Virus record (IMG/VR): IMGVR_UViG_3300048574_000389
Span: 1-41,545 of that record
Source of the DNA: a virus
Taxonomy: Duplodnaviria > Caudoviricetes
Reading direction: 5' to 3' (one strand)
Length of the DNA stretch: 41,545 nt
Part shown: piece by piece, positions 12,350-34,184 of the stretch
How positions within the stretch are numbered: the first letter of the stretch is position 1
Layout: each line of letters opens with the position of its first letter
Notes under the pieces: model-generated
Seen by the model: the letters and a program-made list of their open reading frames with translations, nothing else
Told to the model about the DNA's origin: nothing
The model's database searches: none
Position numbers and translations under genes: made by a program

Positions 12350-13999
12350 ATGACCGAACAGGAAACAACTGTCCTGCCGGTGGATGACGCCGACGCGGCA
12401 CTTTACGCACGGCTGGAGACAGCCCGGGCGGATTTCCTGTACCGCGCTCGGGCAAACGCCGAGCTAACCATTCCGTCCCTGATGCCCCCCGAGGGGCACT
12501 CAGCGGCCTCCCAACTCTACAAGCCGTGGCAGTCCATCGGCTCGCATGGCGTTAACACGCTGACCTCCAAGCTAATCATGACGCTGCTGCCGCCGAACTC
12601 TCCGATGTTCCGGTATTCGTACAGCGATCAGGTGATCGAGGAGCTGGCCCAGGACAAGACGCTCCGCGCCGACGTGGACAAGAAGCTCAACGAGATCGAG
12701 CGAGCCGTCCAGGACGAGATCGAAGGTCTCAGCATACGTGCCGCCCTTGTGGAGGCCGTGAAGCACCTGATCGTCTGCGGGAACGTCCTGATCTACCTGC
12801 CGAAGTCCGGTAACCTCCGCATCTTCCGCCTGGATCGCTACGTCGTCCAAAGGGACTACGAGGGCAATCTGCTGCGCATCATCATCAAGGAAACCGTCGC
12901 GAAGGAAACCCTTCCCGAGCAGGTCCAGTTGATGCTCCAGACCCCGAGTGAACTCCCGTCCGACCAGAACGGGAAGGTGGATGAGAAGGAGTTCGACGTC
13001 TACACCGTGTTCCAGCGCCAGGGCGACCGCATCGTGACGCACCAGTCCATCAAGGGCATGGTCCTCCCAGGCTCTACCGGGTCCTGGAAGCTCGATAAGT
13101 CGCCAGTGATGGCCCTCAGGTGGACCTACATCCACGACGAGGACTACGGACGCGCCTACATTGACGAGTACATCGGTGACCTGACCGGCGCGGAAGCGCT
13201 CTCCAAGGCTCTCAGACAGGCCGCAGCGGCTTCCTCCAAGATCAACCCGATGGTCAACCCGACCGGCCTCACGAGGGCCGAGGACATCGCGAACGCCGAG
13301 AACCTTGAGGTCATCTCGGGCCGCGCCGATGACGTGACCATGTTGCAGTTCGACAAGCAAGCCGACATGCAGGTGACCCAGAGTGTCCTCCAGGACCTAA
13401 TCGCCCGTCTGTCCCATGCGTTCATGATGAACAAGTCGGTGCAGCGTAACGGCGAGCGCGTGACAGCCGAAGAAGTCCGCACCATGATCTCCGACCTGGA
13501 CGACGTCCTTGGCGGCATCTACTCGCTCCTGGCTCAGGAACTCCAGTTGCCTCTAGTCTCCCGCATCATCGACCGGATGGAGCGCGAGAAGAAGGTTCCG
13601 AAGCTTTCGTCGCTCAAGGGTCCCGATGGGAAACCTGTAGCTCGACCGAAGATCGTTACCGGTATCGAAGCGCTTGGCCGAGGCCATGACTACAACAAGT
13701 ACATGACGTTCGTCCGCGACGTGCTGGCACCGATTGGTGACATGGCATGGCAGGAGGTCAACGTCAGCGACTTCATTAAACGAGCAGCCGTATCGCTATC
13801 CATCGACACTGATGGTCTCCTCAAGTCCGAGGAGGACAAGCAAGCCGCGCTCGCTAAGCAGCAAGGCCTCCAGCAGGGCCAGATGAACCAGCAGATGCTT
13901 ATGGACATGGTGAAGGGGGCAGCGCCCCAGGTCGCCAAGGTCGCATCTGAGGGTATCGCTGCACAGATGACAGGAGCGCCGGATGGCCTCGTTCAATAA
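12350..13999 (+). CDS. Portal / head-tail connector (gp8 homologue)
   Basis: LTIPSL, PWQSIGSHGVNTLTSKL, YVVQRD, EDYGR, ERVTAEEVR, LGGIYSLLAQELQLPL, TGIEALGRG. Confidence 0.97.
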   Translation: MTEQETTVLPVDDADAALYARLETARADFLYRARANAELTIPSLMPPEGHSAASQLYKPWQSIGSHGVNTLTSKLIMTLLPPNSPMFRYSYSDQVIEELAQDKTLRADVDKKLNEIERAVQDEIEGLSIRAALVEAVKHLIVCGNVLIYLPKSGNLRIFRLDRYVVQRDYEGNLLRIIIKETVAKETLPEQVQLMLQTPSELPSDQNGKVDEKEFDVYTVFQRQGDRIVTHQSIKGMVLPGSTGSWKLDKSPVMALRWTYIHDEDYGRAYIDEYIGDLTGAEALSKALRQAAAASSKINPMVNPTGLTRAEDIANAENLEVISGRADDVTMLQFDKQADMQVTQSVLQDLIARLSHAFMMNKSVQRNGERVTAEEVRTMISDLDDVLGGIYSLLAQELQLPLVSRIIDRMEREKKVPKLSSLKGPDGKPVARPKIVTGIEALGRGHDYNKYMTFVRDVLAPIGDMAWQEVNVSDFIKRAAVSLSIDTDGLLKSEEDKQAALAKQQGLQQGQMNQQMLMDMVKGAAPQVAKVASEGIAAQMTGAPDGLVQ

Positions 14000-14471
14000 C
14001 TCCTTCGCAGCCGCCCGGAAAGCCGGGAAGTCCACGTTCATGTGGAACGGCAAGAAGTACAACACCAAGATGGCGTCGTCCTCGACCCCCAAGAAGGGTC
14101 CGGTACCGAAGGCCAAGCCATCCCAGGCGAAACCCGCAGCCGCACCCGCGAAGCCTCGGCCCGTTCAGGGTCCCCAACCGGCTAAGGCCGTGGGGATCGC
14201 CCGTCCGAACTCGCCTATCGCCAAGGCAGCAGCCCGTCAGGCCAATGCCCCGAAGGCCCCTTCGAAGCCCCCTACCGGACTAAGCGCTAAGCCTTCGCAG
14301 ATCGCCGCAGGTGTATCCGCCCGGAAGGCCAAGGAAGACCTAGCTTCTCGCAAGCAGGGTCCGCAGCCCGAAGGCGTCTGGTACGCCAAGAAGGGGTCCC
14401 CGATGTCCATCGGTGCGGCCCGTCGAGCCAACGCCCCGAAGCCTAAGAAGCGGACCGGCGGCGGCTGGTAA
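13983..14471 (+). CDS. Highly basic K/A/P-rich protein with N-terminal F..AR..G...F.WNGKKY.T module
   Basis: AGGAG RBS; composition; overlaps the portal end. Confidence 0.75.
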   Translation: MASFNNSFAAARKAGKSTFMWNGKKYNTKMASSSTPKKGPVPKAKPSQAKPAAAPAKPRPVQGPQPAKAVGIARPNSPIAKAAARQANAPKAPSKPPTGLSAKPSQIAAGVSARKAKEDLASRKQGPQPEGVWYAKKGSPMSIGAARRANAPKPKKRTGGGW

Positions 14472-14598
14472 CTGAAATGAACCCTCCACGCCTCTCGAAG
14501 AAGCGCACCCGGAGGGTCCCTCTTGTATCCCCCGGACCGGCCTCTGCTTGCAAGCCGCCGGGGCATGTTCCTTTCATCCCCCAACGAAGAGCAAACCA

Positions 14599-30261: not shown

Positions 30262-31989
30262 TTGACCTACAAAGACGCCCTCAAGTCCTCCACCGCCGGT
30301 GTTGAGGCCGATCCGCTGCGCTCCGATTTCAGGAAGTTCATGTGGCTCGTCTGGAAGTACATCAACCTTCCGAACCCAACCGCAGCCCAGTACGACATCG
30401 CCCGGTTCCTCCAGACGGGGCCGAACAAGATTTGCATTGAGGCTTTCCGAGGCATCGGGAAGTCGTTCATCACGTCGGCCTTCGTCCTCTGGGTGCTCTA
30501 CTGCAATCCGCAGATGAAGATCATGGTTGTCTCGGCCTCGAAGAACCGAGCCGACAACTTCGTTACCTTCACGCTCCAGCTCATCAACCTCATTCCCGAG
30601 CTTCACCACTTGAAGCCCCGGTCGGACCAGCGTTCCTCGCGTGTCGAGTTCGACGTCGGCCCCGCCGAGCCTGACCAGACACCCTCGGTGTTCGCCAAGG
30701 GCATCGACAGCCAGCTTACCGGTGGTCGTGCCGACATCATCGTCTCCGACGACGTCGAGGTCATGAACAACTCCATGACGGTTGCAGCGCGAGACCTCCT
30801 GGTCGAGAAGACCAAGGAATACTCGGCTATCTTGAAGCCGCTGGCCCACGCTCGCATCATCTACCTCGGGACCCCGCAGACCGAGGACAGCATCTACAAC
30901 AAGCTGCCTGAGACCTTCACGACGCGCATCTGGCCAGCCCAGGTGCCCACGAAGGACGAAAGGCCTGGTTACGGTGACAGCCTCGCTCCCTTTGTCGAGG
31001 CGATGTACGCCGCCGGGAAGCACGGTTCCCCTGTGGACCCTGAGCGCTTCGACAGCGCGGAACTCCTGGAGCGCCGTGCCGAGTATGGTGCTGCTGGCTA
31101 TCAGCTCCAGTTCATGCTCAACACCAAGCTCTCCGACGAGGAGCGCTACCCGCTCAAGCTCAAGAACCTCGTGGTCATGCCGGTTCCGCCCCAGAAGGCC
31201 CCGTATGACGTCCATTGGCTCCCGAACCCCGACAGGTACCTCAAGGACCTCCCGACCTACGGGATGGCCGGTGACCGCTACTTCGCAGCCGCAGGACACT
31301 CCTCGCAGTTCGAGGACTACCAGCACCGCGTCATGTCCATCGACCCATCGGGCCGAGGCAAGGACGAGACCGGCTATGCCGTGGGCTTCATGCTCGCCTC
31401 GAACATCTGGGTCCCCAAGGCCGGAGGTTTCCAAGGCGGCTACGAGACGGAGACATTGGATGCCCTGGTGAAGATCGCCAAGAAGTACAAGGTGCAGACC
31501 TTGGTCATCGAAAGCAACTTCGGTGACGGCATGTTCGCCAAGCTCCTGGAGCCGGTCCTTCTCAAGCATTGGGTGTTCTGCGAGATCGTTGAGGTCCGCT
31601 CGAACACCATGAAGGAACAGCGCATCCTCGACGTCCTGGAGCCTGTGGTGTCTCAGCACCGCCTCATCGTTGACCCTGCGGTTATCGAGGAGGACCACCA
31701 GAACATCCAGCAGTACGAGACGTTGGTTCGACAGCACAAGAGCCTCTTCCACCAGATGACCCATATCTGCCGGACGAAGGACGCCCTACGCCACGATGAC
31801 CGCCTGGACGCCCTGGCGATGCTCGTGGGTCACTTCGTTGAGAAGATGAACCAGGACGGCGCTAAGACAGCCGCCAGGGTCCACGACGAAGCCATGAGGG
31901 CCGAGATCGCCAAGCTCCACCAAAGCCCACTCAACAAGGTCTTCGGGGGACACCGACTGACATGGGGCGGGAAGACCGGCCTAGTATAA
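30262..31989 (+). CDS. terL: Terminase large subunit (gp19 homologue)
   Basis: AFRGIGKSFIT, LTGGRADIIVSDDVE, YLGTPQ, IDPSGRGKDETG, ESNFGDGM, HDDRLDAL. Confidence 0.97.
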   Translation: MTYKDALKSSTAGVEADPLRSDFRKFMWLVWKYINLPNPTAAQYDIARFLQTGPNKICIEAFRGIGKSFITSAFVLWVLYCNPQMKIMVVSASKNRADNFVTFTLQLINLIPELHHLKPRSDQRSSRVEFDVGPAEPDQTPSVFAKGIDSQLTGGRADIIVSDDVEVMNNSMTVAARDLLVEKTKEYSAILKPLAHARIIYLGTPQTEDSIYNKLPETFTTRIWPAQVPTKDERPGYGDSLAPFVEAMYAAGKHGSPVDPERFDSAELLERRAEYGAAGYQLQFMLNTKLSDEERYPLKLKNLVVMPVPPQKAPYDVHWLPNPDRYLKDLPTYGMAGDRYFAAAGHSSQFEDYQHRVMSIDPSGRGKDETGYAVGFMLASNIWVPKAGGFQGGYETETLDALVKIAKKYKVQTLVIESNFGDGMFAKLLEPVLLKHWVFCEIVEVRSNTMKEQRILDVLEPVVSQHRLIVDPAVIEEDHQNIQQYETLVRQHKSLFHQMTHICRTKDALRHDDRLDALAMLVGHFVEKMNQDGAKTAARVHDEAMRAEIAKLHQSPLNKVFGGHRLTWGGKTGLV

Positions 31990-32000
31990 GACAGCAAAAG

Positions 32001-32191
32001 TGAAGAGTAGGAGGATTGACTTCTACTCTTCATCTATGCTACCCTATATAACCTAGAGATATCTCTAAGACATCCTTAGTTATCTCTTAGTCTTTAATAG
32101 GTTATAAGTAGAAGTATACCCCTAGAGGACACTGACAGTTCTCTATCAGTTCCCTCCGAGTTCACTCTAAGTGTCCTCCCAGGGGCATACT
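32001..32191. repeat. Cluster of inverted repeats after terL (probable genome-end/concatemer-junction region)
   Basis: TGAAGAGTAG/CTACTCTTCA (32001-10/32023-32); TATAACCTA/TAGGTTATA (32047-55/32098-106); GAGGACACT/AGTGTCCTC (32125-33/32170-78). Confidence 0.75.
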
Positions 32192-32806
32192 CCTCATACT
32201 CTCCCCCATCTTGGTTGGATGTTGGAAGATAGGGATCGCCATAGAGGCCCCTGGAGGGCCTTGGAGTGCTCCCGGCTACCACCATAGCCGACACTCTCCC
32301 CATCGCGCTGTGTGGCCTCGACGGAGTCACGGAGAATGGATTGTTTCCACAGGGGACCCTCGGCGACCTTTTTCTCAAAAAGTCTGTTTCGATATACGTT
32401 ATATGGTGCAACCGCAAATCCCCCCGTGGGGGTACCCGGTGCAACCTAGAATGCCCTATACGGCACGGTTGCTGGCACTGCCCGGCACTAAGCCCTTGAT
32501 TTCATTAGGCTCACCGCTAGATATAGTATCGGATAAGGGCAGGGAATGAGGGGTAAACCCTAGGTTTCCCAATGGTTTACGCGTGACCCTAAGCTTGCGC
32601 GTGTCCCTTCCCACATTTTTCCACCTAGGGTGCACCTTGAGGGCACCGGAAGCCTGTCACCACCGATCACGAAATGTAACAGACTGTAACACTCTCGGTT
32701 AACTCCGGGCTTGCCCATATATAGCACGGGCGCACGGCGCGTGTTCTCCGGATCACAATGGGCACCTATACCGGCCTCCCGCGCCATCCGGCGCATAAAA
32801 AATTCC

Positions 32807-32846
32807 TACGAAAGCGTATTGACGACGATAACGAAACTATGCCAAT
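32807..32846 (+). promoter_or_regulatory. Candidate early sigma70 promoter (copy 1)
   Basis: TTGACG at 32819; 26/29 identity to the unit at 33041-33069; -10 element weak. Confidence 0.45.
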
Positions 32847-33040
32847 GTTTAGTCACGGTGATCGAAACGGTCACCGGGCAGGGGCCTCCGGGCCTCTGGG
32901 TTCTTCTACATCGCTAGACGGTCCCACGGGTAACGTGCTGTTATTCCACCGGTCCAATTGGTTCCTAAGCACTCTACGCCACGGCTAGAAGAGACGGACA
33001 CTGACGGACACGGCAGGAAACAAAACGACGGCAAGAAAGT

Positions 33041-33081
33041 TACGAAAGGGGATTGACTACGATAACGAAGAGAACTAGATT
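33041..33081 (+). promoter_or_regulatory. Early sigma70 promoter with the 18-bp motif in its spacer
   Basis: TTGACT(33053)-17 nt-TAGATT(33076); also fits rhizobial CTTGAC-N17-CTATAT. Confidence 0.75.
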
Positions 33082-33131
33082 GAAGACACATTGAAGAGCG
33101 GCGGTTGAGCCTTACGGGGAACCAAAGCGGT

Positions 33132-33162
33132 CAGGAGTGGAAGCCTCCTGTGTTCTTTGACA
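33132..33162 (+). promoter_or_regulatory. boxB-like hairpin + boxA-like antitermination signal
   Basis: CAGGAG-loop-CTCCTG directly followed by TGTTCTTTGACA (rrn boxA is TGCTCTTTAACA). Confidence 0.65.
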
Positions 33163-33163
33163 T

Positions 33164-33775
33164 TGCTGGAGGATTGACGGTGCGGGGCCTGACAAGCGGC
33201 CCCTAGTGGGAAAACCACGGCACAAGAAATCCGTAAAATCCGCTCACAGGCCGGAACGAAACGTCTGTAAACCCGCGTCCCATTGAACGCGGTCCCATGT
33301 AGCGAAAGCGGCGGAAAACAGGGAACGGTCACGGTGTCCAAACCCGTGAAGCAAAGTAGGGGAGGGCGTCACGTAAAGGGTGGCGTCATCCCCGAAAGTT
33401 CCAGCTAGTAAACCGTGAGTACGGCAAGGGATCGTCAATAGGTGAAGGCGCGGTAGGACTAGCTTAGGCTTGGCAGTCGGCCTTTCTAAGACTGCCCGGC
33501 ATGGAACCGGCTTAAAAATAGGTTCCCGTCTCGTTCTAGGCGTACCAGCCGCTAAGTGTCGTGAGGCCACGGCAACCCGCAAGGGTCGGATAAGGGGAAT
33601 AGACCCCATGACGATTAGCTTAAAGGCAACACCGACCGTCACCGCGTCCTTTCGAAACCGCTAGCATCGAGGCTCGGCAAGCCGCTATCGGATGGACCAC
33701 TGGACCAGCCAGCGACCCTCGCTTGAGAGGGAACGCGGTCCCACCGGATCAATGGCCGTCGCAAGGTGTTGCCCG
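33164..33775 (+). ncRNA. Candidate large, highly structured ncRNA (~610 nt core)
   Basis: No credible + strand ORF; more than 15 helices found by eye, including long-range 33173-81/33431-39, 33447-54/33641-48, 33164-69/33661-66 and crossing pairs 33403-09/33458-64 and 33625-33/33765-73; GNRA loops; many G-U pairs favour the + strand. Confidence 0.7.
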
Positions 33776-33803
33776 TTAAACTAATCAACCAAGGATCGAA
33801 CAA

Positions 33804-34052
33804 GTGACTAAGTATCTTGTCATCTATCAGCCGAAGGGTGCGCTTCGTTGCGAGACGAAGTATTTCGGACCCTTCAACAACTTTGGGAACGCCTACAACT
33901 ATCTGGCGCAGCTTCCCGCCGCCATCGACTGCGAATGCAAGTTTGTTCAGGAGATCGATGCTCCTATACCGCTCGGCGGGGTGCCCTCTGGGTGGTCCCT
34001 CGTGGGAGAACTGTGTCCAAATGCCTACGAAAACGGAGTATCTGCGCCATGA
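33804..34052 (+). CDS. Hypothetical early protein
   Basis: AAGGA RBS, GTG start; first ORF after the structured region. Confidence 0.65.
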   Translation: MTKYLVIYQPKGALRCETKYFGPFNNFGNAYNYLAQLPAAIDCECKFVQEIDAPIPLGGVPSGWSLVGELCPNAYENGVSAP

Positions 34053-34107
34053 CACGCAAGGACTATGAACTGATCGCTTCCTCAAGGCTTGCGGGGTCGA
34101 AACGTGA
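34049..34107 (+). pseudogene. Internally deleted remnant of an MTRKDYELIA...DRFLKACG family small phage gene
   Basis: GGAG RBS; N-terminal MTRKDYELIA fused out of frame at TGATCGC to DRFLKACGVET-stop. Confidence 0.65.
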
Positions 34108-34184
34108 TCCCGAAGGCTGACCATTTCAATCTCGGGGGCATCGTGCTCCTCGCCGTCTTCGCGGCGGTCCTGATCCAACTGTAG
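34104..34184 (+). CDS. Small membrane peptide (26 aa)
   Basis: GTGA overlap; MIPKADHFNLGGIVLLAVFAAVLIQL. Confidence 0.4.
   Translation: MIPKADHFNLGGIVLLAVFAAVLIQL

Follow-up and report, generated by a model that had tools for sequence, protein, structure and literature searches.

The window analyzed in this study is an entire IMG/VR provirus record of 41,545 nt. PHROGs matches identify RNA polymerase, primase/helicase, DNA polymerase, portal, capsid and terminase genes in T7 gene order, with a single-subunit RNA polymerase, and the gene set also includes an integrase, a transcription regulator and an antirepressor. The coexistence of T7-like genes with these three genes indicates a temperate T7-like phage. 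Relatives were collected via the terminase and comprise 47 viral loci and six genome loci. Because the closest terminase relatives in bacterial genomes are Rhizobiales prophages (86% for L050 and 75% for an Aminobacter prophage), Rhizobiales are suggested to be the host group of the window phage.

Between the terminase gene, which ends at position 31989, and the early genes, the window harbors a gene-free stretch at 33087-33786. The stretch is flanked by a sigma70-type promoter with an rRNA-leader boxA on one side and by the first early ORF on the other. The left end of the virion DNA, if placed according to T7 gene order, presumably lies in the same terminase/early-gene interval. The first early ORF (+ strand) starts with GTG at 33804, behind a ribosome-binding site (RBS) at 33792-33795, and ends at 34052; its 82-residue product belongs to no family, and no homolog was found among the related loci compared. 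No terminator was found at the 3′ end of the stretch, which continues into the RBS and the ORF. Further downstream, a small early ORF of ~60 residues in L008 and L050 is shortened in the window at 34050-34120 (+), and sequencing runs X1 and X7 contain 133 extra letters at 34077.

Two structured segments lie elsewhere in the window. The segment at 32001-32250 (+), directly 3′ of the terminase gene, has the lowest folding z of all genome windows sampled (−5.1) and contains a 14-bp hairpin. A resembling sequence is also found 3′ of the terminase in relatives, and the segment is possibly a packaging or late-promoter region. Rfam also matches abiF RNA at 14482-14517 (+; 39.8 bits, gathering threshold 37, E 0.0006), in the gap that separates the scaffold gene from the ORF at 13983-14471. 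The matched segment may encode an antitoxin-like RNA or form a hairpin by chance; no abiF-like copy was found in the related loci compared, most of which do not span that region.

The gene-free stretch contains structured non-coding RNA. As originally predicted, it lacks a credible ORF: none of its three overlapping ORFs has a Pfam family or a convincing tblastn match in 21 related loci, where the best hit (E 0.01) falls on the antisense strand of the conserved boxA leader, and stop codons interrupt all six frames of module A (described below) in five of five homologs. A coding function was ruled out on these grounds.

Promoters and boxA leader

The predicted sigma70-type promoter (P2; 33053-33081, + strand) was recovered by a scan as TTGACT-17-TAGATT and is conserved in L003, L008, L050 and others. 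Its spacer contains an operator-like CGATAACG motif. Upstream of P2, a candidate host promoter (P1) and a leader of ~200 nt occupy 32819-33050 (+). P1 was identified solely by homology, as 32807-32835 is a 29-nt, 90% copy of P2 that also contains the CGATAACG motif in its spacer; it is absent from the consensus promoter scan and has a weak −10 element in the window, and the L050 copy displays the full consensus. The P1 leader is conserved in L003, L008, L050 and L051 and consists of two hairpins, a boxA-like run and a long irregular stem, with 9 of 39 predicted pairs altered on both sides. Short motifs are common to this leader and module C, in a different order. A transcript from P1 would read through P2. 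The host-type promoter that was proposed to produce the first transcript of the phage is present, but the stretch may not be the very first transcript because of the likely further promoter at 32819.

The CGATAACG-type family is represented at 10 sites in the window (2497, 3553, 4967, 7198, 16609, 32826, 33060, 34538, 34855 and 37978), mostly in the early and middle regions, and nine of the sites are located outside structural genes. These motifs are likely to be repressor operators.

A 5′ leader at 33087-33150 (+), which begins at the putative start site, forms two hairpins at the boxB position and is conserved in five phages. The hairpin at 33132-33150 precedes boxA and is maintained in run X3 by the compensatory substitutions A33133T and T33149A. 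The boxA (TGTTCTTTGACA; 33151-33162, +) is identical in all 12 letters to a sequence ahead of 16S rRNA in a host-type genome (G002; L182), and the rrn-like boxA leader that was anticipated behind a host-type promoter in a T7-like phage is present in the sequence. Most related leaders contain boxA-like copies, and the promoter, the hairpin pair and boxA are common to the terminase-found relatives. The G002 genome also contains five dispersed GC-rich elements that end in boxA outside its rRNA operons (L178, L181, L183, L184 and L185). A boxA element for antitermination is described behind the early promoters of T7 (PMC3709561). rRNA operons display the boxB-boxA-boxC order, a Nus/SuhB chaperone ring and an RNase III stem, as outlined in the available part of PMC8632103. 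Judged from its sequence, the promoter-boxA part of the locus is the known layout of the T7 early control region.

Structured modules behind boxA

Does the stretch behave as one RNA? The original prediction described a single ornate RNA of ~700 nt with an overall closing helix, two closed domains and two pseudoknots. Its five long-range or crossing pairings are complementary (6/6, 9/9, 8/8, 7/7 and 9/9), and both arms of the 14 short stems checked are present within the region. The folding excess over shuffled sequence (z −2.9 for 694 nt) is modest, as 6 of 42 sampled 250-nt genome windows reach z ≤ −2.1. However, the nearly complete pairability does not exceed chance: 12 Watson-Crick helices of ≥7 bp are found, versus 11.7 ± 3.4 in 20 shuffles. 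In the partition function, the pairing probability is 0.00 for the overall closing helix and for the closing helices of domain 1 (33173-33181/33431-33439) and domain 2, and it is below 0.1 for pseudoknot 1. The helix assigned to pseudoknot 2 (33625-33633/33765-33773) is real, with probabilities of 0.83-0.98, but it is the nested inner part of a ~20-bp stem, 33613-33633/33765-33786 (stem D). The proposed single RNA, with its domains and pseudoknots, is not supported; the region is instead a patchwork, and other phages carry its components individually.

Module A (33171-33416, +) consists of three linked multi-helix domains at 33171-33232, 33242-33303 and 33312-33415. Its homologs in L008, L050, L004 and L175 are each 59-60% identical to the window, which makes five phages in total and fewer independent lineages, given that L004 and L175 are 88% alike; model R1 detected no further members in 28 sources. 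In an unadjusted MAFFT alignment of the 5′ domain, 9 of 20 pairs are changed on both sides, a result matched by 0 of 500 shuffles. Across the 11 helices, with P9 and P12a counted as 3 bp, 228 of 230 cells are paired and 30 of 46 positions are changed on both sides in the five sequences, although hand placement inflates these values. Close relatives in sequencing runs offer a separate check on the pairs. T33174C and A33229G in X1 and X3 together preserve helix 33171-33175/33228-33232 (A.P1), which competes with the earlier domain-1 closure, and C33202T and G33250A also keep module A pairs; at least two substitutions (T33400C and G33383T, in the register used here) break one pair each. These compensatory changes across homologs uphold most of the local domain-1 hairpins listed earlier and show, by covariation, that module A folds as a separate unit. 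Module A is apparently an uncatalogued RNA family.

Module C (33634-33760, +) is a three-way junction RNA with nine instances, invariant unpaired bases at the junction and a conserved C·C mismatch in the closing helix. It was encountered in another phage group through an early-gene search (nine loci; L186, L187 and L191) and is also present in the cultured Rhizobium phages RHph_Y1_20, Y48, Y86, Y2_7 and TM34. Its location varies: it follows attP in RHph_Y1_20 and TM34, lies between early genes in L215 and L224, and is missing from L192 at the place where L187 and L191 carry it. Seven of the eight other carriers encode a T7-like RNA polymerase with 34-39% identity to the enzyme of the window, or share that locus layout; L186, L187, L199, L205, L215 and L224 were assigned directly and L201 by record taxonomy, and L191 is a fragment without an RNA polymerase match. 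In eight aligned copies, which represent few independent lineages because L199/L205 and L215/L224 are near twins, 95% of the cells are paired and 14 of 32 pairs are changed on both sides (slid controls, 22-44%). Model R3, built without L201, nevertheless recognizes that copy with 55 bits (E 1.4e-11). At least one change in close relatives (G33738A) breaks a module C pair, and module C alone has a folding z of +0.2. Covariation shows that module C, like module A, folds as a separate unit, and it too is apparently an uncatalogued RNA family. A likeness of its distal arm to T-box stem I was considered and rejected, as Rfam gives no match and neither the window nor L201 has a corresponding loop. 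A target-site duplication as the sole origin of the closing helix was also rejected because L199 keeps the pairing (7/7 plus the mismatch) better than the repeat identity.

Behind the second helix of module C, a self-complementary loop at 33650-33657 (+) is a candidate dimerization site. Its core hexamer is self-complementary in all nine copies in spite of sequence change, being UUCGAA in five, GUCGGC in two and CUCGAG in two; the CUCGAG type belongs to L215 and L224, which were retrieved by a search that left the loop positions free. The outer pair of the palindrome is kept in five of the eight aligned copies and broken in three. For OLE and GOLLD, PMC12286853 backs the proposed intermolecular pairs with covariance of adjacent loop bases. 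By the same reasoning, module C probably dimerizes via its palindromic loop, although the inner pairs could instead form a tiny intramolecular hairpin of one or two pairs.

Module C is enclosed by stem D, whose 5′ arm (33613-33633, +) pairs with its 3′ arm (33765-33786, +) and resembles, as a long irregular stem, the RNase III site of T7. The base of stem D is conserved in six phages, with 30 of 30 cells paired. The window has one copy; in L003, L004, L008, L050 and L175, stem D lies directly ahead of the first ORF, with a short loop and without module C, and L003 has a second copy before another early ORF. Enclosure of module C by stem D is confined to the window lineage; L186 has a comparable stem upstream of the module. 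A stem-D pattern returned nothing in 10 of 16 sequences.

Block B (33467-33612, +), a row of local hairpins with a folding z of −1.1, is present or absent between close relatives. In three runs from three studies (X1, X3 and X7), the 155-nt block is missing and only 12 letters separate 33466 from 33634; X8 retains the block. Near-direct repeats flank the block, namely the stem-D 5′ arm copies at 33457-33466 and 33613-33622. The first copy (33457-33466, +) acts as the 5′ arm in relatives without block B, where A33784G matches the 3′ arm to it. Without block B, most of the earlier domain 2 is missing; one strand of pseudoknot 1 is explained as well. nhmmer found no block B homolog in 29 loci.

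Other structured segments occupy the same slot in L003, L051/L006, L009, L052 and L012. Among these, a conserved segment of ~165 nt fills the post-boxA slot of L051 (11085-11250) and L006 (10395-10560; nhmmer E 1e-23). A second phage group (L187 at 1240-1590, L186, L189, L191 and L192) has its own boxA leader and more shared structured modules, with no Rfam match.

Rfam 15 covariance models yielded nothing relevant in the window or its homologs, with no match to ROOL, GOLLD or OLE at E up to 5. Rfam and ARAGORN gave no match to tRNA, tmRNA, RNase P, group I or II introns, catalogued ribozymes, riboswitches or T-box; no rRNA gene matched in the window, and blastn of the region matched no cultured phage or plasmid. 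Pattern scans with the promoter motif (49 stretches), the leader (11) and a module A motif (13) hit mostly by chance and added no new module A member. A metagenome scan returned 49 stretches, with one new module A member (L175) and three L003 copies. Module C patterns returned 3, 6 and 29 stretches; apart from the new L205, L215 and L224, these were copies already known or chance hits. Among 151 host genomes, model R1 matched a prophage copy in one, and R2 and R3 matched none. The module C pattern hit 4 of 401 host genomes, below the reversed control, and R2 and R3 rejected all four. No RNA sequencing run in the index contains the stretch; two runs labeled RNA-Seq are marked as probably DNA and offer contigs only. 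The full-text literature, most subscription papers aside, provided no published account of modules A and C. The readable supplements of an IMG/VR structured-RNA screen contain no match, and its alignment archives may hold these motifs unnamed (PMC10690425).

Possible roles of the early RNAs

What is the function of the modules in the early region? We tentatively propose that the stretch is a T7-style gene-free early head whose separately conserved modules are released by RNase III as accessory RNAs, possibly directed against host defense. Host RNA polymerase would likely start near 33087, probably under repressor control via the operator-like promoter motif. The boxA would then likely load the Nus complex for read-through and as a folding chaperone, as in rRNA operons, a role transferred from T7 and rrn on the basis of sequence identity. 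Modules A and C would fold as separate units. RNase III would likely cut stem D, freeing module C from the loop and the A-bearing 5′ piece from the mRNA; here, the stem is observed, and cutting is what we infer from it. Module C would likely use its palindromic loop to pair with another copy of itself, as its covariation suggests. Finally, the freed RNAs may act in trans as swappable early cargo, which is the least supported step. The anatomy, from transcription start to the folding of A and C, is very probably correct; the whole chain, trans action included, is a working proposal that may well fail at some point.

A cis role is the closest competitor and is possible, though less likely. The modules could act within the early mRNA as RNA antiterminators, 5′ stabilizers or translation control elements. 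The modules are all in sense orientation, within leaders or between genes, no terminator was found at the end of the region, and module C is located 10-46 nt upstream of an RBS in nine of nine copies, which suits a cis role equally well. The HK022 put RNA sets a precedent, being described in the available part of PMC8632103 as a cis RNA antiterminator of early genes. However, module C precedes genes that share no kinship, namely GP88 in L187, another small protein in L199 and an orphan in the window; clean losses of B or C set close kin apart, and boxA already offers antitermination. Moreover, a covarying palindrome is not expected of a cis element. We favor released accessory RNAs over cis elements for two reasons: swaps, losses and relocations of the modules take no account of the gene behind them, and module C bears a dimer signature.

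Three further explanations are improbable. Self-cleaving ribozymes are frequent at intergenic sites before small phage genes, and module C is likewise mobile among such sites; together with its compact three-way junction, invariant unpaired junction bases and C·C mismatch, this mobility would fit a new self-cleaving ribozyme (module C or A) that processes the early transcript. Yet no Rfam ribozyme match or pseudoknot was detected, and stem D already provides a processing route, so we consider a ribozyme unlikely. The modules might also be selfish or near-neutral cassettes, spread by short-repeat recombination and tolerated in leader loops. The near-direct repeats around block B, the closing arms of module C, which are near-direct repeats as well, and the patchy distribution point in this direction, and the cassette explanation may hold for block B. 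For the modules in general it is equally unlikely: compensatory changes across phages at 34-39% RNA polymerase identity argue for selection on the RNA fold, and G·U wobbles in the palindrome and helices argue for RNA, not DNA, as the selected form. A single ROOL/GOLLD-like RNA spanning 33087-33780 would suit the size, the z of −2.9, the many covarying helices and the module C dimer signature, and L050 has a 9/9 complement to the segment aligned with the domain-1 closing helix, a helix that a single further A>G substitution in each run, not itself observed, could restore in X1 and X3, but we judge it improbable in view of the near-zero probabilities of the long-range helices, best complements to the domain-1 closing helix of just 7/9 in L008, L004 and L175, the co-occurrence of modules A and C only in the window lineage, the loss of block B in ~90-94% identical relatives and the missing 3′ terminator.

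If the released-RNA proposal is extended to its broadest form, T7-like temperate phages that infect Rhizobiales imitate the way in which the host produces rRNA, with the boxA-Nus chaperone and RNase III stems, to make swappable structured ncRNAs on entry or induction. Module C would then be a new self-dimerizing class of phage RNA that acts in trans as an anti-defense or host-takeover factor, an RNA counterpart of T7 early proteins. This extension is speculative and, in our estimate, doubtful. The T7-like early region is a known place for swappable anti-host proteins; in the window phage, the early-region slot holds swappable, covarying RNA folds that are absent from Rfam 15. The early-leader layout is known from T7, and modules A and C look new. 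Module C is a short RNA with a testable dimer signature, and its carriers include cultured Rhizobium phages. Trans action, if true, would reveal a new class of RNA host-takeover or anti-defense factors and a phage whose own RNAs are folded and processed along the rRNA pathway, and modules acting in cis would still represent new regulatory RNA families.

Comparison with known systems

T7 early RNA is transcribed from the host promoters A1-A3 and cut by RNase III, with an RNase III site before the first gene. The window resembles this early control region in its T7-like genome, its host-type promoter P2 with the candidate P1 upstream, the downstream boxA and a long irregular stem that immediately precedes the first ORF. 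Unlike T7, it places ~450 nt of additional conserved structure between its boxA and this stem, with a further 127 nt inside the stem loop, and the window phage is temperate, with an operator-like motif in its promoter and an orphan as its first ORF. The second likeness is to the rRNA operon leader, which shares the hairpin-then-boxA order, a boxA identical to that of the host-type 16S leader, structured RNA downstream and an RNase III-type stem. In contrast to the operon, the window has no rRNA in this place, and the stem encloses module C only and not the whole RNA.

The modules share a phage or prophage origin with ROOL and GOLLD and many covarying helices with ROOL, GOLLD and OLE. They differ from these RNAs in having no Rfam match, no nearby tRNA and no terminator of their own, and they are not conserved as one unit, the conserved units being 127 and 245 nt. 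The palindromic loop covariation of module C is similar to that of OLE L9.3, as far as the available text of PMC12286853 describes it. Finally, like HK022 put, the stretch is a structured RNA that heads early phage transcription by the host polymerase. Unlike put, a double hairpin of ~65 nt in the accessible text of PMC8632103, the modules of the window phage are larger, multi-branched and located behind boxA.
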